DNA of 64,000 nt from a virus, in the IMG/VR virus record IMGVR_UViG_3300045988_117195, positions 31,385-95,384 of that record. One strand, written 5' to 3'. Made by a program: the position numbers and the translations under genes. Below the pieces are notes generated by a model. It searched no databases. It was given only the letters and a program-made list of their open reading frames with translations, and was not told where the DNA came from. Shown here piece after piece: positions 26,963 to 36,533 of the stretch. Position 1 is the stretch's first letter, and the number at the start of each line of letters is the position of its first letter.

Positions 26963-27319
26963 TCACATTATTCCTTCCAAATTTACTTTAATAGAACCAT
27001 TTATAGTTTTAATGCTCCCATCTATGGTTGAAATCACATCATCTAAATCATTTATAATACTTTCTATGTCATCAACCACCTCCTCCATATCAGTTACAGC
27101 CTGATCTGATTCCCAATATCTTTCTGAGTCTTGTAACGATTCCGGTATATTATCTCTCGCCTCAGTCTCTTCATCTAAAATCATATCAACATCATCCTTG
27201 GCTGAATTTATGTTGTACTTCAACTCCGATAACTTTGATTTGATGTATTCAAAATCTGTTTTATACTTATTTACGTTTTTGACAACATCTGATATTTTTT
27301 TTCTTCTCTTGTTGTTCAT
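26963..27319 (-). CDS. acidic coiled-coil hypothetical protein
   Basis: ORF in minus block. Confidence 0.45.
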   Translation of the reverse strand: MNNKRRKKISDVVKNVNKYKTDFEYIKSKLSELKYNINSAKDDVDMILDEETEARDNIPESLQDSERYWESDQAVTDMEEVVDDIESIINDLDDVISTIDGSIKTINGSIKVNLEGIM

Positions 27320-28737
27320 GCCTTTATCCTATTATAATATTCGATAATCTTTTCTTTCCTATCTCCCGGTTTTACTGCCATATTCTCAGCTAAGAACCTA
27401 AAATACGACACTGGTATGTCCTTGAATCTAATTCCTTCATATTTTCCAAACCACATTATTATGCTGTCAAGATCGTCTTCTCTTCTACCATCTCCATTCA
27501 CAGATTTAAGCGAGGCTGCCCGACGAAGGATCTCGTCTTTGGTAATAATATCACCCATCCTTATATTGGACAGAAGTTGATTGCCGGCAAACATACACCA
27601 GCCCTTAGAAGGAAATTGTTCGATCGTCAAGTCTTCTATCCGACCAAAACGTCTCATGTTGTCGCAGCAATCAACTATCAGCGCCTCTTTCTTATCAGGA
27701 TGGATGCGGACGGCGCGGCCTAATATTTGGTAATACGTTGAATATGAGAAAGTTGGTCGACCAAACATCACACAATCAAGTTCAGGAAAATCAAATCCGG
27801 TAGCAAGCGTTGAATAATTAAAAACCACCTTCAACTTACCTTCTTTGAAATCTGATATGATTTGCTCTCTTTTCTTTTTGGTTGTTAGCGATGTTACGAC
27901 ACCTGTTATGGCTCCCATTTTGGCATTCATAAACTCTGATATTCTATTACATGATTCGATAGAATCCATACAAACCAAAATGGCTTTACGCTCGTTCATA
28001 AGCTGAAGAAGACGCTTGTAGATAGAGTTGTTTAAGCCATTTCGTACGATGCTTTCTTTAATAGATTCGTTGGTATATTCGGCTCCGGTACTGTTTAACA
28101 TCAGAGCCGATTCATCAAACGACCATCGTTCGTACTTAAGAGGGCACCAAAATCCCTGAGAAGTTAGCTCTTGTATTTGAGTCACATGAACTATCTTCTT
28201 AAAGAAATTATGCTCGTCTTTCGTCAGCATATTAAGTTTGCTGTAGTTTCCTTCCAGCATGGAGCTGTAGGTCCGGAGGCGGCAGGGCGTGGCGGTGAAG
28301 CCCAGCACCTTCGCCTCTGGGAACCTGTTCATAAACTCCATAAATTCAGAACCTTCTTCAGGAGAATACCCGCTATGCACCTCATCTATCAATAATGTGT
28401 CTATCCCTATATCTTTCAACCTTGCTACGTCTTTCTTTATGCTTTTAAGTGTAGCATAAGTCATAGCCGATAACTCTTTTTTTTTACATGAAGCAGAATA
28501 TATGGTAGGTTTAGAACCGAATGATACAGCCTTCGCATAATTCTGCTCCAGAATCTCTTTAGATGGCTGTAATACAAGGATAGGTCTTTTTAATTCATGA
28601 GCTATCTTGCTAATTATCAAAGACTTCCCCGCTGCACACGGCAAGACTTCTATGCCAGGCTTCTTAGATCTTCCTGTAAGGAACTTAAGCCCGGCATCTA
28701 CTGCCTCTTTTTGGTAAGGTCTAAGTTCAAAGCCCAT
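27316..28737 (-). CDS. SF2 DExH-box DNA helicase
   Basis: Walker A PCAAGKSLI, motif II LLIDEVH, motif III FTATP, motif VI QILGRAVR. Confidence 0.8.
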   Translation of the reverse strand: MGFELRPYQKEAVDAGLKFLTGRSKKPGIEVLPCAAGKSLIISKIAHELKRPILVLQPSKEILEQNYAKAVSFGSKPTIYSASCKKKELSAMTYATLKSIKKDVARLKDIGIDTLLIDEVHSGYSPEEGSEFMEFMNRFPEAKVLGFTATPCRLRTYSSMLEGNYSKLNMLTKDEHNFFKKIVHVTQIQELTSQGFWCPLKYERWSFDESALMLNSTGAEYTNESIKESIVRNGLNNSIYKRLLQLMNERKAILVCMDSIESCNRISEFMNAKMGAITGVVTSLTTKKKREQIISDFKEGKLKVVFNYSTLATGFDFPELDCVMFGRPTFSYSTYYQILGRAVRIHPDKKEALIVDCCDNMRRFGRIEDLTIEQFPSKGWCMFAGNQLLSNIRMGDIITKDEILRRAASLKSVNGDGRREDDLDSIIMWFGKYEGIRFKDIPVSYFRFLAENMAVKPGDRKEKIIEYYNRIKA

Positions 28738-29454: not shown

Positions 29455-29607
29455 GTTAAACCATATATCCTCCAGCTTCTCCTGAAGCTCAAATGCTTTC
29501 TTGAAATTCCCGCATCTTACAGCAACATCTCTCATGTATTCTACGTTTATAACTTCCGGATCTTGCCGGTATTTTGTTCTTAACTTTTGAACGTCCTCGT
29601 ATTTCAT
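29455..29607 (-). CDS. small hypothetical protein (50 aa), translationally coupled (ATGA) to nuclease gene
   Basis: Unlisted ORF MKYEDVQKLRTKYRQDPE... with ATGA stop-start overlap at 29604-29607. Confidence 0.3.
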
Positions 29608-30623
29608 CGTTTTATCTTTTTAGACGGATCCCAATCTGAAGAGAAAGGGCATTCGTTTTTGTTATGTAATCCAAAGTCACAATAATAACACAGTGCCGAC
29701 GGGCAGGGCAGCTTGTTTTGCGAAACAGGCTGGCTTAGGGTGGCACGCCGCTTGCTATACCTGGCTCCTTCTGCTCCCTGGATGTACGCTTGAAATGATT
29801 TTACACTATTATCTTCAAAATCATACATTTTAGACAAAGTGTCATTTAGCATCTCTATAGATTTTGTTTTACGTTCCTCATCCACCTTAACCTTTTGGTA
29901 CTGCCTGGTCCTGGTAAAGAAATAGATGTTCATATCTGGAAGAACTCCACCATATTTTCTATAGATGTAAAATGAATATATAGGATGCTGTAAATTCGTT
30001 TCCAACTTCTTAGAATCAAAAACCTTATTACCTGATTTCCAATCTATGACATAATGGTGAACTACGTTCTTGCTTTTTATAGCCAGATGAAGGTCTACCG
30101 ATCCTACTATGTACACATGAGTATGAATTACTCCATTTATGTTAACAGGCTTAGGAAGACGGTACGGCAGCACAAAATCTTCTTCGACTCCAACTATAGC
30201 GCCGTGTCTGATAAGTTTCTCGCAGGGATTAAGATCACTATCAGCTATCATAAACCTATTGCCGTCTTTTTTGAACAGATCCACAATCCAAGCAAGAAGC
30301 TCTCCAGATTGCTTCATGGCTATCATCATATTTTCCGGTGATTGCCAAGGTATGTCTTCTTGGTAAGCATAGTAACTTATAGCTTCCCCCAGGTCTTTGC
30401 CAGAAGGCTGTCTTCCGTTCTTGAAGAAGTATTCCAGTGTCTTATGAATAACCGTACCATAAGACGTAGCTTCTTGTTTTTCCGTAGACCTTTTGCCCTC
30501 CACGTAAGTCTTATACCATTTCATTGGACAAGTAAGAAACGTATCTATCTGGGAATAAGATATGGCAAGACGTTTCACGCCATTAAACTCCTTATATAGC
30601 AAATGCGTTTCCGGGACCATCAT
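29604..30623 (-). CDS. Cas4/RecB-like PD-(D/E)XK exonuclease with 4-Cys Fe-S cluster
   Basis: N-terminal Cys (CPMKWYK) plus C-terminal CPSALCYYCDFGLHNKNECPF; GSVDLH...IDWKSG (D..D-x-K) and QHPIYSFYIY (QxxxY) motifs. Confidence 0.75.
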   Translation of the reverse strand: MMVPETHLLYKEFNGVKRLAISYSQIDTFLTCPMKWYKTYVEGKRSTEKQEATSYGTVIHKTLEYFFKNGRQPSGKDLGEAISYYAYQEDIPWQSPENMMIAMKQSGELLAWIVDLFKKDGNRFMIADSDLNPCEKLIRHGAIVGVEEDFVLPYRLPKPVNINGVIHTHVYIVGSVDLHLAIKSKNVVHHYVIDWKSGNKVFDSKKLETNLQHPIYSFYIYRKYGGVLPDMNIYFFTRTRQYQKVKVDEERKTKSIEMLNDTLSKMYDFEDNSVKSFQAYIQGAEGARYSKRRATLSQPVSQNKLPCPSALCYYCDFGLHNKNECPFSSDWDPSKKIKR

Positions 30624-30979: not shown

Positions 30980-31142
30980 AATGCTTGGTCAGTTCTTCTG
31001 GTTCTAAATCTTGTCCAAAATCCATGTTAAAAATATCGTAATTAGTAAAGCACTTAAAATCACTGTTCCCGCAGGCAGGAAATCTATGAATGCTGCTTTT
31101 ATTTCTTCAATTAGGCCCAAGTGTAACCTTGGGCCATTGTAT

Positions 31143-32843
31143 TTATTTTTTGTCATCTCCTTTTAATTTCTTTAAAGTATCTGCAATCGGAAGCTGATCA
31201 ATGACTCCCAATGCCGGAGCGACGGTCTTGACAACATTGTTAAGGAAATTACCGGTACTGTTCTGACCGCCGTCAAATACCGTGATATTTCCGAGATTAA
31301 TGTGCTCAAATGCTTTAACCTGTTCTCCAGCAATTTCTTTCCACTGATTAACCATCTTGTACTGGATGGCGATCTGAGGATTGGATTCTGCTGCTTCCAC
31401 CATAGCCTTAAATCCGTCGGCTTCTGCCATTAACGACTTTTTCTTACCTTCGGCTTCTGCCTCCAGCTTCATCTGAATAGCTTTTGCCTCTGCCTCAGCT
31501 TTTGCCAAATGTGCTGATGCCTCAGCCTCAGCCCGGCGTTTGATCTTCTCGGCCTCGGCATCAGCTTGCAAGATAGCCTCTTCCTTCTGGGTTTCAGCCG
31601 GCACAATCTTTTCAGCCTTAAGCGCAGCCTGAACTTTCTTAGCCTTAGCTTCTTCCACTTCTTTGTCTGCAAGCTCTTTTGCTGTTTTTACAGCCGCTTC
31701 CGATTTAACTTTTTCTTCTCCGGCCTTCTTTTCTGATTGAGCTTTGATAATCTGCAATTCTGATACTGACACAGCAACCTCCTTCTGGGCATTGTTGTAT
31801 CCTATAGACGCATTTTTCTCAGCCTCAGCCTTCTTAATCTGAGCTTCAGAGTTTTGTATTGCTATAGCTGCTTCCTTGTCAGCTTCAGCCTTGTTCTTTC
31901 CGACTTCTTCCATCCTTTCAGCCTCGGCTTTATTTACTTCAAGTTCTGCCTTAGATCTTACGATCGCCGATTCCTTGTCGGTTAAAGTTTTTGCGATAAC
32001 CGCAGCCCTATCTCTATCTGCTTGAGCTACACCAATCTGTTTTTCTTTATCGGTTAAAGCCAAAGCTATTTCTTTTTCTTTCTTCGTTTCAGCTACTATT
32101 GTTTCCTTTTCTTTTTCAGTACAAGCAATTTGAATCTCTTGTTCTTTTTTGGTATTAGCCACAGCCGTTTCTTTCTCCTTCTGCTGTACAGCAATCTTAA
32201 TAGCCCCCAGCTTCTCCTGTTCTTCGATATTAGCCTGTGCTTCGTTCAGAGCCCTACTTTCAGCCTCCTTACCAAGGTTCATAATATAACCGGCTTCGTC
32301 TCTAATGTCACTGATGTTGATGTTCAGGAGGTAAAGACCTAACTTGTTAAGCTCGTTATCAATGTTCTTTCTTGCCTTATCCAAAAACTCATCCCTGTCA
32401 GAATTAAGTTTTTCGATTGTCATTTCAGCAATAATCAAACGCATCTGACCGTAAACGATGTCCGTAATAAGATTTTCAGTAGATTCGGTATCCATTCCCA
32501 AAAGTCTTTCTGCCGCATTTTGCATGATCTCTGGATTTGTACTGATAGCTACTGTAATAGTCGTAGGAACATCTACTCTAATATTCTGAGATGACAAAGC
32601 ACCGGTAAGCTTGCAATCTATTTGCATAGGCTCCATTGACAAAACATCATAGCTTTGAATAATAGGCAAGACAAATGCCGCTCCACCATGATATAATTTC
32701 GCCGATTTCTTTTCCCCACCTGTCTTACCATAAACGACCAAGACCTGATTAGGCTTACATCTACGATACCTTGATAAGACTCCGATGATTGTCAAAATAA
32801 TCACTACAGCTAAGATAGCTGACACGTACATGATTGTTGTCAT
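31143..32843 (-). CDS. flotillin-like SPFH/band-7 protein (FloT/YuaG family) with N-terminal TM helix and long Ala/Glu/Lys coiled-coil
   Basis: Collinear with B. subtilis FloT: YRRCKPNQVLVVYG, GGAAFVLPIIQ, AGYIMNLGKEAESRALNEA, EA-repeat region, C-terminal NITVFDGG. Confidence 0.85.
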   Translation of the reverse strand: MTTIMYVSAILAVVIILTIIGVLSRYRRCKPNQVLVVYGKTGGEKKSAKLYHGGAAFVLPIIQSYDVLSMEPMQIDCKLTGALSSQNIRVDVPTTITVAISTNPEIMQNAAERLLGMDTESTENLITDIVYGQMRLIIAEMTIEKLNSDRDEFLDKARKNIDNELNKLGLYLLNINISDIRDEAGYIMNLGKEAESRALNEAQANIEEQEKLGAIKIAVQQKEKETAVANTKKEQEIQIACTEKEKETIVAETKKEKEIALALTDKEKQIGVAQADRDRAAVIAKTLTDKESAIVRSKAELEVNKAEAERMEEVGKNKAEADKEAAIAIQNSEAQIKKAEAEKNASIGYNNAQKEVAVSVSELQIIKAQSEKKAGEEKVKSEAAVKTAKELADKEVEEAKAKKVQAALKAEKIVPAETQKEEAILQADAEAEKIKRRAEAEASAHLAKAEAEAKAIQMKLEAEAEGKKKSLMAEADGFKAMVEAAESNPQIAIQYKMVNQWKEIAGEQVKAFEHINLGNITVFDGGQNSTGNFLNNVVKTVAPALGVIDQLPIADTLKKLKGDDKK

Positions 32844-32875
32844 AACTTTTAAAATTTAATTGTTGATAAAAAAAA

Positions 32876-33370
32876 TTAGATACTTAATTCTCCTTCTTCG
32901 TATTTTATATTCGCCTTGTCACCGTTTTTGTAAGTTTTTCCAGACAAGCATCTTACTCTCATTTGCTCCTGTCTTCCATTTTTCGAAATATTTACCATAT
33001 AATGATTCTTCCCTGATCTAAATACTATCTCCACCTCTCTGCCATTCAAATCTTCCGGACATTCGTACACCATTTCTTGTTTTAACTTAAGAAGTAACTT
33101 ATATACGTAAAACAAAACGATAAAGAAAAATGACCCTATTACGATCCCTACTAAATGGGAACCCGAAAAGTACGTAGTCCAGCTATATCCAAGAATAAAA
33201 TGTGTTATGCCTTTGAATGATATGATGTCCGACAAAGACATGCTTAAATCAGAAGCGTTATCAATGTCAATATCCGTATCCAGATCAGATCCTAATATCG
33301 ACAATAAAAACTGTATAACAAAAGCAAATGACGCTATTAAAGCCATGCATAAAATTATATCATTTCCCAT
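32876..33370 (-). CDS. NfeD-like (YuaF-type) membrane protein with C-terminal OB-fold
   Basis: Three hydrophobic helices then beta-rich C-terminus (DLNGREVEIVF..GKNHYMVN...GDKANIKYEEGELSI); immediately upstream of flotillin gene as in yuaF-floT. Confidence 0.65.
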   Translation of the reverse strand: MGNDIILCMALIASFAFVIQFLLSILGSDLDTDIDIDNASDLSMSLSDIISFKGITHFILGYSWTTYFSGSHLVGIVIGSFFFIVLFYVYKLLLKLKQEMVYECPEDLNGREVEIVFRSGKNHYMVNISKNGRQEQMRVRCLSGKTYKNGDKANIKYEEGELSI

Positions 33371-33611
33371 ATCCTTCTGTTATTATTTTGTAAACAAGAT
33401 CAGTCATATCTTTGATGGATTCTGTATCATAATCAATAATAACGATATTGAATTTTTGTTCCACCATCGTATCAAGCTCAATTCGATCAATAGAATCTAA
33501 TCCAAGTTCTTTAAACGACACATCTTCTTCATGAACTATATCCATTTCCGAATTAAGAAACTGAGTAATAATTATATCCTCTATTATCTTTCTAATTCTT
33601 ACTTTTTCCAT
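33360..33611 (-). CDS. acyl carrier protein-like (phosphopantetheine attachment Ser in LGLDSIDRIEL)
   Basis: 83 aa, acidic; alignable along full length to AcpP (VRIRKIIEDI..., FKELGLDSIDRIELDTMVEQKFNIVI, DLVYKI). Confidence 0.7.
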   Translation of the reverse strand: MEKVRIRKIIEDIIITQFLNSEMDIVHEEDVSFKELGLDSIDRIELDTMVEQKFNIVIIDYDTESIKDMTDLVYKIITEGYGK

Positions 33612-34312
33612 TGCTTTCTAATTTTGTTAAATAAATACGTTTTTATGTTTTTCAACCTCTCTTTGTCTGTTTCCGAACTTCCGGTAAACAAATAATCCGG
33701 ATTGCCTTTAGCCGGCGGCGTAGGCAATTTAGATACGGCAAACAACCAATCCATTTCCTTATTCTTCTTAGGCTCCAAATAAGGCTCGGTAGCGATCTTA
33801 AATTTTTCAGCTATTAGGTCAAAGAGCTTTGAGTTTTTAAGGTTCATATGGACTGAAAAAGCCTGAGAAGGCGGTTTCCATATGAAGTTACATAAGCTCA
33901 TTGTGTAATCTCCTGACTCTGCTATATAAGATTCCGTTACTTGAAGTATGACCTCTTTCTTAAATGAAGTATTACCCATAAACCAACACAATCTGGATTC
34001 CGCTTCTTTTCTGCTGACACCTATGTCTTTTGAATATGATTCGTACATTCCTATCATAATCTTCAACGTTTCCAGAACCTCGTCCGTCATTTCCGGTGTC
34101 TCTATATAATTCACAAAAGACGTTCCTTTGTTGGTTAATCTCATCACGCCTGATTTTAATTTCTCAACCAGGCCAAGCTCTATATATCTTCCAGCGTCTT
34201 CTTCCGGTATGGCTTCGATCATAACCGCATCCTTCTGTCTTATGGCAAGAAGATTAGCGAGATCATTAGGAGTCATGTCTGATGCTGTAAGTTGTCTGAA
34301 ATTGATGTACAT
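33599..34312 (-). CDS. hypothetical protein (first gene of ACP-NfeD-flotillin operon)
   Basis: ORF overlapping ACP start by 13 nt. Confidence 0.5.
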   Translation of the reverse strand: MYINFRQLTASDMTPNDLANLLAIRQKDAVMIEAIPEEDAGRYIELGLVEKLKSGVMRLTNKGTSFVNYIETPEMTDEVLETLKIMIGMYESYSKDIGVSRKEAESRLCWFMGNTSFKKEVILQVTESYIAESGDYTMSLCNFIWKPPSQAFSVHMNLKNSKLFDLIAEKFKIATEPYLEPKKNKEMDWLFAVSKLPTPPAKGNPDYLFTGSSETDKERLKNIKTYLFNKIRKQWKK

Positions 34313-34536: not shown

Positions 34537-35139
34537 TTAACTGTTGTACCCTTCTTTGATAATCGAATTTCTACCGGTAGATACCGACTGTCGAAGATCG
34601 TCATGTACAGAATCTACCGTAGAATACTTGTTTCTGGTTGTAAAAATCACTTCCAGCATCTCCTTGTAATCACCTAAAGCTACTTCGTATCTCGGATCCA
34701 CTTTGGCTTTTCTTTCAGCCTCGGCATTACTTTTAGCCAGCTCTCGGTCGAGAAGGTCTTCTTTGATCCGGTCAGCAATCATATCAAGTTCTTTTTTAAT
34801 AACTTCTCCTGCTGCCCGAAGTTGACCTTCTACGTCACCAAGCTGGTCTTGGACGGTACCTATTTCTTTCTTTAGACGATCGTATTCGTTAATCATACCC
34901 ATATCACCTGCATAACCAGAAAAGTCTTTGATTATTCTGGTCCCTTCTTTAAGAAGCTCAATGACTCGTCTTTTGCGTTCTCTGCTTATTAAAGACGGAA
35001 GACGATAATTCATATCCGCTACTGCTTTATCATGTATGGAGTTGATTAAAAACATCTCTCTTTCATCCCCTGCGAACTCAGTAAGAACCAAAAGGAACTT
35101 ACTTATCAGGTATTCGTTTTCTTCTACGGTAAGTCTCAT
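34537..35139 (-). CDS. hypothetical coiled-coil protein
   Basis: ORF in minus block. Confidence 0.5.
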   Translation of the reverse strand: MRLTVEENEYLISKFLLVLTEFAGDEREMFLINSIHDKAVADMNYRLPSLISRERKRRVIELLKEGTRIIKDFSGYAGDMGMINEYDRLKKEIGTVQDQLGDVEGQLRAAGEVIKKELDMIADRIKEDLLDRELAKSNAEAERKAKVDPRYEVALGDYKEMLEVIFTTRNKYSTVDSVHDDLRQSVSTGRNSIIKEGYNS

Positions 35140-35152
35140 ACGTTTCTTTTTT

Positions 35153-36277
35153 TTAATATACTGACTGTTCTTCCTTTACCTCTTGTTCTTGATCTTGATT
35201 GTTCGTAACGTCTTCCACAGTATAGAGCTTGGGCGGCGTCGGCGGCTGGTTGGGGTTCACGAACTTCGTCCCTCCCTCCCCGTACATCCATCCATGCCCC
35301 GGCAGGATCTCTGGGTGGATTGTATTAGTAAGCTCTTCCATACTAACTTGCCTTACCTTCAGTATATGATGAAACACCAGTCCGGCTGTCCTGAATGATG
35401 TTTTGTTTTCAGTTTTAAACCGGTCAAGAGTCTGATACCAATCTTTTCCAAATATCATATACTTATCCAGCCCGTATCTGCGAGGATTATGCAAGCCTAT
35501 CATTAACGTACATAGTTGTCCCAACGTATCAGATTGGTAAAAATCAGAAAGACGCGGAGGCTGCTCTTGGGGACTTTTTATCCGTCCTTCTATTTCTCTG
35601 TTGAATTGGGATATAATGAGAAAAAATATGTTTTTATACACTAATTTGGCTTCATTCATTACCGCCACCAAATCATCTATAGCCGACTTAGGATCCAATC
35701 CCATTCTTTTTATCAAAGCAATATGATCGACTTTAAATATTATAAGACGTTTGTCCTTGTGTCTGGTAGCTATATGATACACAGCCGCCTCAAATTCTTT
35801 TACCGTACATGGAGCATCAATGTATATTATATTATTTCTGATTTCACCCTGAAGGATTTCAAACATCCTCATCTCTTCTACTGTATTAGAATCTTGCCTT
35901 CTTAATATTTCAGGAGCCCGCTTTTTCATATCCTGGCTCATCCTGCGAAGAAGAAGATCTTGAGGATTCATTTCGAACTCGCAATTGACAAGAAAATAAT
36001 CTTCTGCTTGCGGGTTGATCATCGGATTCATCACATTTTCCAATATCTTTTGGGCCACATACGATTTACCCACAGATGGCCGAGCTCCTATGGCAATAGC
36101 ATGCTGAGGGAAAATACCTCCAAGCAAAGCCTCATCAATATAATCGTATCCGGTTTTAGCGGGGATAAGCTCTCCCCGCCTGTATTTTAAGATATTCTCA
36201 TACGCCTCCTCCATAACCTGTTTAGAGGTTTTGAATATCCTTCTTATATCTATCCTATTTGCTATCTCCTCTTGCAT
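35153..36277 (-). CDS. DnaB-like replicative helicase (RecA-fold ATPase domain)
   Basis: Walker A IGARPSVGKSYVAQKI typical of DnaB C-domain; Walker B-like IIYIDAP; ORF track start 36286 is GTG, ATG at 36277. Confidence 0.7.
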   Translation of the reverse strand: MQEEIANRIDIRRIFKTSKQVMEEAYENILKYRRGELIPAKTGYDYIDEALLGGIFPQHAIAIGARPSVGKSYVAQKILENVMNPMINPQAEDYFLVNCEFEMNPQDLLLRRMSQDMKKRAPEILRRQDSNTVEEMRMFEILQGEIRNNIIYIDAPCTVKEFEAAVYHIATRHKDKRLIIFKVDHIALIKRMGLDPKSAIDDLVAVMNEAKLVYKNIFFLIISQFNREIEGRIKSPQEQPPRLSDFYQSDTLGQLCTLMIGLHNPRRYGLDKYMIFGKDWYQTLDRFKTENKTSFRTAGLVFHHILKVRQVSMEELTNTIHPEILPGHGWMYGEGGTKFVNPNQPPTPPKLYTVEDVTNNQDQEQEVKEEQSVY

Positions 36278-36533
36278 TTTTGTCACCTTTCGTATCCGAT
36301 TTGGATCCCCTATTAGCTTTTACTGATTTATACCTAAGACCGTTCTTGGTATGAGAACAATCCTTGCCTTTCCTCCAGCTTTTGCCCTTCTTCTTGTCCG
36401 TTTCGTAGTTTTTACGACCAAGCTCCCGGCGTTTGGCTTTCTGTTCCGGTCTGGCATTTATCTCCTTGTCCTTTTTAGCCTTTTTCTTCCTGGCTTCGGG
36501 ATGAGTCCTGTAGTACTCTGTCGATCTACCCAT
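36255..36533 (-). CDS. Lys/Arg-rich highly basic small protein (tentative)
   Basis: 92-aa low-complexity ORF in minus block between zinc-ribbon gene and DnaB. Confidence 0.35.
   Translation of the reverse strand: MGRSTEYYRTHPEARKKKAKKDKEINARPEQKAKRRELGRKNYETDKKKGKSWRKGKDCSHTKNGLRYKSVKANRGSKSDTKGDKNARGDSK

Follow-up and report, generated by a model that had tools for sequence, protein, structure and literature searches.

Bacterial flotillins and their NfeD partners are widespread, and their physiological role is debated. The yuaF-floT pair of B. subtilis, the nfeD-floA pair of S. aureus and the QmcA-YbbJ pair of E. coli share the same logic, in which an NfeD protein, located in the membrane and ending in an OB domain, is found beside an SPFH scaffold. 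Flotillin forms a 44-mer cage, and SPFH cages are attached to the membrane and delimit a patch of it (PMC11260169); 26 heterodimers make up the cage of QmcA-YbbJ (as summarised in PMC13086221), and the FloA-NfeD pair of S. aureus stabilises unfolded membrane proteins under stress (PMC11222466). A pair of this kind was found in a phage, within the 64,000-nucleotide (nt) stretch of IMG/VR record IMGVR_UViG_3300045988_117195 (positions 31,385 to 95,384 of that record) that is hereafter called the window. There, a gene for a 566-amino-acid (aa) flotillin (31143..32843, minus strand) follows a gene for a 164-aa NfeD-like membrane protein (32876..33370, minus strand), the two being referred to as the cassette, and genes for an 83-aa acyl carrier protein (ACP)-like protein and a 237-aa protein lie immediately upstream. 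The region shows 95.7% nucleotide identity and conserved arrangement with phage crAssE-Sib (GenBank OR575929, where the name is given as 'csAssE-Sib'; 151 kb, human gut), which has been placed in the epsilon crAss-like group, proposed genus Epsilonunovirus (PMC11054128). According to clustered regularly interspaced short palindromic repeat (CRISPR)-spacer work, as cited in PMC11054128, epsilon crAss-like phages would have as their hosts Bacteroides, Parabacteroides and Porphyromonas.

Similarity to flotillin was detected in just 11 of 50,697 phage records. Vibrio phage KIT04, one other isolate so annotated, also encodes a protein annotated as a flotillin family member, but its identity is just ~30%, and no NfeD-like gene can be recognised next to it in the annotation, whereas the phage of the window took the operon together with its partner. 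The crAssE-Sib genome paper nowhere mentions flotillin, NfeD, ACP or membranes (PMC11054128), a 2026 preprint mentions in passing an HflK/C-like SPFH domain in another Crassvirales genus, and no paper in the literature searched links crAss-like phages with flotillin or discusses the cassette. The initial annotation, a reading of the window from its sequence alone, had proposed an undescribed phage system; this holds for discussion in the literature searched, but not for the components, since OR575929 already carries the annotations 'flotillin family protein', 'transmembrane protein', 'acyl carrier protein' and 'hypothetical protein'. The kind of system is already known; what is new is that the partner gene is recognised, that the cassette is traced to a host and set apart from ACP as well as replication, and that its presence or absence is polymorphic.

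With a probability of roughly 55%, we read the locus as two unrelated things side by side, namely a host-derived flotillin cassette, which would provide a conditionally useful membrane scaffold, and two resident phage genes. The four minus-strand open reading frames (ORFs) of 237, 83, 164 and 566 aa listed in the initial annotation, as well as the motifs LGLDSIDRIEL and NITVFDGG, are located exactly where it had placed them. The 566-aa protein matches Pfam Band_7 (PF01145; 7.6e-26, profile positions 4-176 of 176), which defines an SPFH/Band_7 domain at residues 30-211 (nt 32211-32756, minus strand), and Pfam Flot (PF15975; 9.4e-10, 39.1 bits against a cut-off of 27), which defines the C-terminal oligomerisation domain at residues 450-559 (nt 31167-31496, minus strand). 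Hydropathy delimits an N-terminal hydrophobic anchor at residues ~4-24 (mean Kyte-Doolittle value of 2.8 over residues 4-22), and composition a coiled coil rich in A, E and K at residues ~212-449 (21% A, 17% E and 17% K over residues 212-449); the protein also carries the C-terminal motif NITVFDGG. Its best PDB sequence matches were human flotillin-2 and -1 (8.6e-23). Against the FloT equivalog model (NCBIfam NF058507), it scored 146.4 bits, below the cut-off of 700. As judged from these comparisons, the protein is a genuine member of the flotillin family and not a FloT ortholog. The proposed end-to-end correspondence with FloT therefore survives for Band_7, Flot, anchor and coiled coil, but the equivalence with FloT itself does not, the relatives being flotillins of Bacteroidaceae.

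For the 164-aa protein, three transmembrane helices are predicted, and its sequence bears an acidic DxDxDxD loop as well as the motif SFKGxxHF. Its AlphaFold2 model (predicted local distance difference test score, pLDDT, of 75) consists of three membrane helices and a C-terminal beta domain, predicted to be an OB fold at residues ~110-164 (nt 32879-33043, minus strand), which is the NfeD-type architecture of transmembrane helices followed by a C-terminal OB-fold beta domain. A same-strand gene in this position, directly upstream of an SPFH gene, was found in the window, in the sister phage (locus L128) and in 14 of 15 Bacteroidaceae loci. Nevertheless, Pfam and NCBIfam scans gave no match at E<=10 to NfeD (PF01957), YqiJ or any other model of the copies searched, either for the phage protein or for its 165-aa Bacteroides homolog, and a 12-member profile of phage and host sequences found no NfeD among PDB sequences. 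A profile search of the full library expanded the family to 405 clusters at 50% identity. Among 82 diverse members, three individually reached PF01957 (best 6e-5), and a profile of the 82 had YuaF as its best PDB match (E 0.027), over the C-terminal domain. The acidic loop, which follows the first transmembrane helix, is nearly invariant across the family, and SFKGxxHF is also shared. Compared with known NfeD-flotillin pairs, the OB-domain fold of the phage protein matches, but there is no Pfam NfeD match, and the DxDxDxD loop and the SFKGxxHF motif are found in the transmembrane region. The label 'NfeD-like' is used because fold, architecture and operon position agree with NfeD while the sequence models do not; the identification as NfeD made in the initial annotation is kept in this sense, and sequence membership in NfeD would be at best remote. 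The partner family, with its ~400 clusters, represents a new family to model.

The bacterial NfeD-flotillin gene order that had been recognised in the phage is confirmed by the Bacteroidaceae loci. The phage flotillin is 62-66% identical to chromosomal flotillins of Bacteroides and Phocaeicola over residues 4-566. The flotillin gene of B. xylanisolvens XB1A (locus L096) is directly preceded by a gene whose 165-aa product is 35% identical to the phage 164-aa protein over the full length (E 3e-29). Upstream NfeD-like homologs of 165-177 aa were found in 11 of the 15 Bacteroidaceae loci examined, while in three others the upstream ORF is longer and can be aligned with the NfeD-like family, and one begins too near flotillin to tell. 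Phage and Bacteroides/Phocaeicola operons share gene order, a short spacer and domain layout, with a partner of 164-165 aa and flotillins of 566 aa versus 546-566 aa. In contrast to the Bacteroides operon, the phage cassette lies in a replication-gene array, is followed by an extra 50-aa transmembrane ORF, has a coiled coil with only 49% identity, and is polymorphic for presence or absence within the species. The identity to Bacteroides is 79% for the SPFH domain and 85% for the Flot C-terminal domain, the latter being closer between phage and Bacteroides than between Bacteroides and Phocaeicola (66%). Neighbour-joining trees place the phage flotillins (window and L128) together as a single clade inside Bacteroidaceae, and the same holds for the phage NfeD-like proteins, which is consistent with one capture of the operon of two genes and subsequent divergence. 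The cassette has diverged by 34-38% from any host copy, the flotillins of the two phage lineages are 82% identical, and its GC content is partly adapted to the phage. Taken on sequence similarity, the NfeD-like and flotillin genes are a diverged copy of a two-gene chromosomal operon of Bacteroidaceae.

The NfeD-like and flotillin genes are separated by an AT-rich spacer of 32 nt (32844..32875, minus strand), and the host loci also have a short spacer (~20-35 nt). An apparently identical 32-nt spacer in host and phage was withdrawn as a further similarity, the host start codon probably lying 12 nt further upstream. On the other side of flotillin lies the 50-aa ORF (31004..31156, minus strand). 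It has a single predicted transmembrane helix, and its overlap with the flotillin stop amounts to 14 nt. The host flotillin operon has no such ORF; a homolog occurs at the same place in the sister lineage L128 (33% identity, E 4e-5), and in deletion alleles the ORF goes together with flotillin. Its ratio of nonsynonymous to synonymous divergence (dN/dS) was 0.29, and the ORF contains a 10-nt indel in many loci. The ORF is possibly part of the flotillin cassette, its status as a gene being weak.

Selection was estimated against the window in a flotillin-selected set, comprising 80 loci kept out of 163 confirmed IMG/VR stretches that encode the flotillin; the flotillin proteins of the kept loci show 96-100% identity, and most of these loci lie on contigs of 76-155 kb. 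The dN/dS values were 0.038 for flotillin and 0.064 for the NfeD-like gene, similar to those of the reference genes DnaB (0.032) and nuclease (0.043) at a proportion of synonymous differences (pS) of ~0.13-0.19, indicating strong purifying selection on the cassette where it is intact. A second set of 80 loci of the same species was selected through the 237-aa gene, and is thus unbiased for flotillin. Among its 79 informative loci, 54 had an intact cassette, 18 a clean deletion and seven other breakpoints, so that 25 (~32%) are without all or most of flotillin, with at least 10 breakpoints. The clean deletions remove the spacer, flotillin and the 50-aa ORF, and leave the NfeD-like gene intact in 18 of 18 cases. 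The commonest deletion allele (31044..32872; spacer, flotillin and most of the 50-aa ORF) has the junction NfeD-stop/TTTAAT/ATGGATTTTGG, which was found in 13 of the 79 loci. In the 18 deletions, the NfeD-like gene has a ratio of nonsynonymous to synonymous polymorphism (pN/pS) of 0.09 at a pS of 0.157, with synonymous diversity as high as in the whole species; therefore the deletions do not derive from one recent clone, and the NfeD-like gene is constrained even in genomes without the phage flotillin. Separate evidence for deletions comes from six distinct in-frame fusions of an NfeD N-terminus to a flotillin C-terminus, and a syntenic 41-kb contig bears a different deletion. No direct repeat of at least 8 nt flanks the deleted segment, where only AT-rich microhomology was found. 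The replication genes are intact in the flotillin-less genomes.

A second indel hotspot was observed beside the cassette. In 9 of 80 genomes (loci L136, L140, L150, L154, L173, L179, L200, L206 and L211), a segment of ~360 nt is present between the 50-aa ORF and the neighbouring 119-aa gene (window 30979/31004).

The scaffold reading can be set out as follows. The ancestor of two species-level epsilon crAss-like lineages of the crAssE-Sib type would have captured the cassette once. During infection, the phage flotillin would anchor in the cytoplasmic membrane through its N-terminal hydrophobic segment and, by analogy with described cages, assemble by means of its EA-rich coiled coil and Flot C-terminal domain into an oligomeric SPFH cage around a patch of the membrane. 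The operon partner would be the NfeD-like protein, with three transmembrane helices and a cytoplasmic OB domain, as in QmcA-YbbJ and FloA-NfeD. The phage may in this manner supplement or take over the host flotillin function, that is, membrane-protein stabilisation and stress tolerance, so that the infected cell stays productive. The benefit would be conditional on the host or the conditions, the cassette being conserved where present and repeatedly lost, and the 237-aa and ACP-like proteins would function independently of flotillin. The NfeD-like protein can probably also work with the host's own flotillin, because its gene survives flotillin losses under constraint. Morons and auxiliary metabolic genes are likewise host-like, located in a variable phage slot, and selected yet dispensable.

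Several points weigh against this reading. The donor clade is deduced from similarity only, and the phage host is a presumed one; the deletion alleles are known from metagenome assemblies alone; the loss of flotillin in a third of genomes means that the cassette is dispensable for basic propagation; and the nature of its benefit is a guess. A diverged flotillin copy is kept by an abundant group of human-gut phages, and its strong selection argues that the scaffold matters during infection. Moreover, variants with and without flotillin coexist in one phage species, and therefore natural material would suffice to test what flotillin does in Bacteroides infection, with no genetic engineering needed.

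According to the main rival, the phage proteins would not contribute flotillin function but would enter mixed assemblies with the host flotillin and so divert or disable it, with the NfeD-like protein as the key effector; possible aims would be the trapping of membrane proteases (FtsH, for example), interference with a membrane-based defence, or the exclusion of superinfecting phages. It owes its standing to two findings, namely that the oligomerisation domain has remained nearly identical to that of Bacteroides while the coiled coil has drifted, and that the NfeD-like gene is retained under constraint in every clean flotillin deletion, hence with a role that does not need the phage flotillin. 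FtsH is enclosed by HflK/C SPFH cages (as summarised in PMC11260169), which would be in line with the first of these aims. However, PADLOC gave no known defence or anti-defence match, with none at all for flotillin, the NfeD-like protein, the ACP-like protein or the 50-aa ORF, and purifying selection along the whole flotillin fits an ordinary function equally well. We regard this reading as possible, although rather unlikely.

More speculative, and unlikely, is that the NfeD-like protein, and not flotillin, forms the conserved core of the cassette, as an NfeD mimic that would dock on host flotillin cages and reprogram them, with the phage flotillin as an optional booster on some hosts. If true, this would give the infection a protected membrane platform, or disarm a membrane-based host response, and would be the first case of a virus targeting a bacterial SPFH/flotillin scaffold.

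In the initial annotation, the four genes were taken as one operon, in which a membrane microdomain would anchor replication or assembly and the ACP would add a lipid-carrier step. Several observations are in keeping with this: the genes are co-directional and tightly packed, and the same five-gene order occurs in the sister species L128. Of the junctions proposed as translationally coupled, only two overlap (13 nt between the 237-aa and ACP-like genes, 11 nt between the ACP-like and NfeD-like genes), the NfeD-like gene and flotillin being set apart by the spacer. However, the surroundings are a long co-directional array of tightly packed minus-strand genes, and therefore the packing is no mark of these four. 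The block does lie, as had been noted, between a PD-(D/E)XK nuclease gene (29604-30623) and a DnaB_C helicase gene (35153-36286), from which it is separated by small genes of 119, 50, 68 and 200 aa.

Comparison of relatives breaks the block apart. In a lineage of ~61% protein identity (L082-L084), the 237-aa and ACP-like genes are kept, and a DNA methylase takes the place of the NfeD-like gene and flotillin, the order being DnaB, 199 aa, 121 aa, 237-aa homolog, ACP-like, DNA methylase, 119-aa homolog, no or two radical-SAM genes, and nuclease. In more distant relatives, only the 237-aa gene is kept from the block, and the small downstream gene is not ACP-like. The cassette thus occupies an accessory-gene slot between the ACP-like gene and the conserved 119-aa gene, and its location beside replication genes reflects this slot. 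A further point against a role in anchoring replication is the third of genomes that are without flotillin and yet have intact replication genes. The case calls for caution in the use of gene neighbourhoods, as tight phage packing does not make an operon and the links with ACP and replication vanish once relatives are compared.

The 237-aa protein (33599..34312, minus strand) is predicted to fold into a MarR-like winged helix-turn-helix at the N-terminus and a helical domain at the C-terminus. Structural matches to this winged-helix fold were MarR-like only, and among viral proteins, those closest in structure come from a crAss-like virus and from Cellulophaga phage phi14:2. It would thus be a DNA-binding protein and not an enzyme. 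A role as phosphopantetheinyl transferase, raised by its Sfp-like length and its coupling to the ACP-like gene, was rejected on the same winged-helix and helical model with MarR-like matches only. With PADLOC, it gave only a marginal match to LmuC (E 0.0098). Its family (36-97% identity) is far broader than the flotillin cassette, and members are always found among DnaB, PD-(D/E)XK nuclease and helicase genes; the protein is a conserved component of the phage replication-gene array.

The ACP-like protein (33360..33611, minus strand; net charge -10) shows the matches expected from its sequence, namely to Pfam PP-binding (PF00550; 25.6 bits against a cut-off of 20.8, sister copies 32.7 and 33.9 bits) and to PHROG 5934 'acyl carrier protein' (8.5e-8). 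With NCBIfam AcpP/ACP models, its best score was ~29 bits, below cut-offs of 66-106. Ser40, in LGLDSIDRIEL (codon 33492-33494, minus strand), is at the canonical carrier position, and is invariant in the intact copies of this species and in L128, which speaks for the operon; in the homologous protein of the L082 lineage, however, this position is Asp. The protein is only 36% identical to the L128 copy, whereas neighbouring genes are 76-82% identical. With a dN/dS of 0.30-0.50, it is the least constrained gene of the block, ~10 times less so than flotillin. Truncated or frameshifted alleles (21, 42, 51, 68 and 71 aa for the truncated ones) were found in 7-8 of the loci examined (sets of 80 and 54), roughly one genome in ten. 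The gene is also a compositional outlier (GC 0.286 and third-position GC, GC3, 0.226, versus 0.38-0.42 in neighbouring genes). A homology search listed at least 120 matches, all of them near-identical copies, with no distant relatives among the matches listed. Compared with other phage ACPs of PHROG 5934, the protein has the same PP-binding match and a Ser at the canonical DS(L/I/V) position, but it is fast-evolving, has lost this Ser in a sister lineage and is an orphan with no annotated partner enzyme: the 206 annotated features of OR575929, many of them hypothetical proteins that were not individually scanned, include neither a phosphopantetheinyl transferase nor an acyl enzyme. The host flotillin operon has no ACP gene. 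These data leave little room for the lipid-carrier link and, as far as gene comparisons can tell, the ACP-like gene is a resident phage gene tied to flotillin by adjacency alone. Altogether, a functional four-gene operon is improbable.

A neutral passenger, that is, host DNA acquired by illegitimate recombination, functionless and in the course of being lost, would account for the frequent and independent deletions and for the position in a variable slot. Such a fate is very improbable for a cassette whose dN/dS of 0.04-0.06 at a pS of ~0.17 matches that of essential replication genes, which has been kept in two lineages with diverged flotillins and differs from any host copy, and whose GC content is partly phage-adapted. 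Host contamination or chimeric assembly, which the initial annotation had named as fatal to its proposal, is excluded because the arrangement recurs in the complete GenBank genome OR575929 and in the 80 kept IMG/VR loci, as well as in ENA and Logan contigs, and the phage flotillin is no more than 62-66% identical to any host gene.

The base composition at 31-34 kb is in line with the remaining window. A promoter and terminator scan of 29-37.5 kb gave counts close to those of shuffled sequence (26 versus 22.6, and 7 versus 5.2), and is uninformative on operon boundaries because the sigma-70 consensus is unsuited to Bacteroides or crAss-like transcription. In tblastn searches, the major capsid protein of crAssE-Sib (L122 27336-29036) matched Cellulophaga phages phi4:1 and phi17:2 (34% identity) and a Leptolyngbya phage, and no classical crAss-like isolates, a result that agrees with the outlying position of the epsilon group.

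Other variable elements were observed in the replication array. Two adjacent radical-SAM genes in L082 (8217-9946) and L083 (8217-9946), absent from L084, occupy a second slot of variable content immediately upstream of the PD-(D/E)XK nuclease. Homologs of the SNF2/ResIII-type helicase in L083, L084, L117, L118, L120 and L127 are 607-830 aa long and bear intein/homing-endonuclease signatures (Hom_end_hint, LAGLIDADG and Intein_splicing), whereas the window helicase (27316-28737) is intein-free and has 473 aa; the DNA methylase of L084 (6941-8521) is also intein-bearing. An IS605 OrfB/TnpB (Cas12f-like) gene lies on the opposite strand inside the array in L083 (1592-2812), and crAssE-Sib has two TnpB genes elsewhere in its genome. 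Finally, the GenBank coding sequence after DnaB (L001 11529-12284) is 756 nt long and overlaps DnaB by ~140 nt, whereas its counterpart in the window (34537-35139), taken from the first start codon after the upstream stop, has 603 nt (200 aa); the 200-aa form is also called in the related contigs examined.

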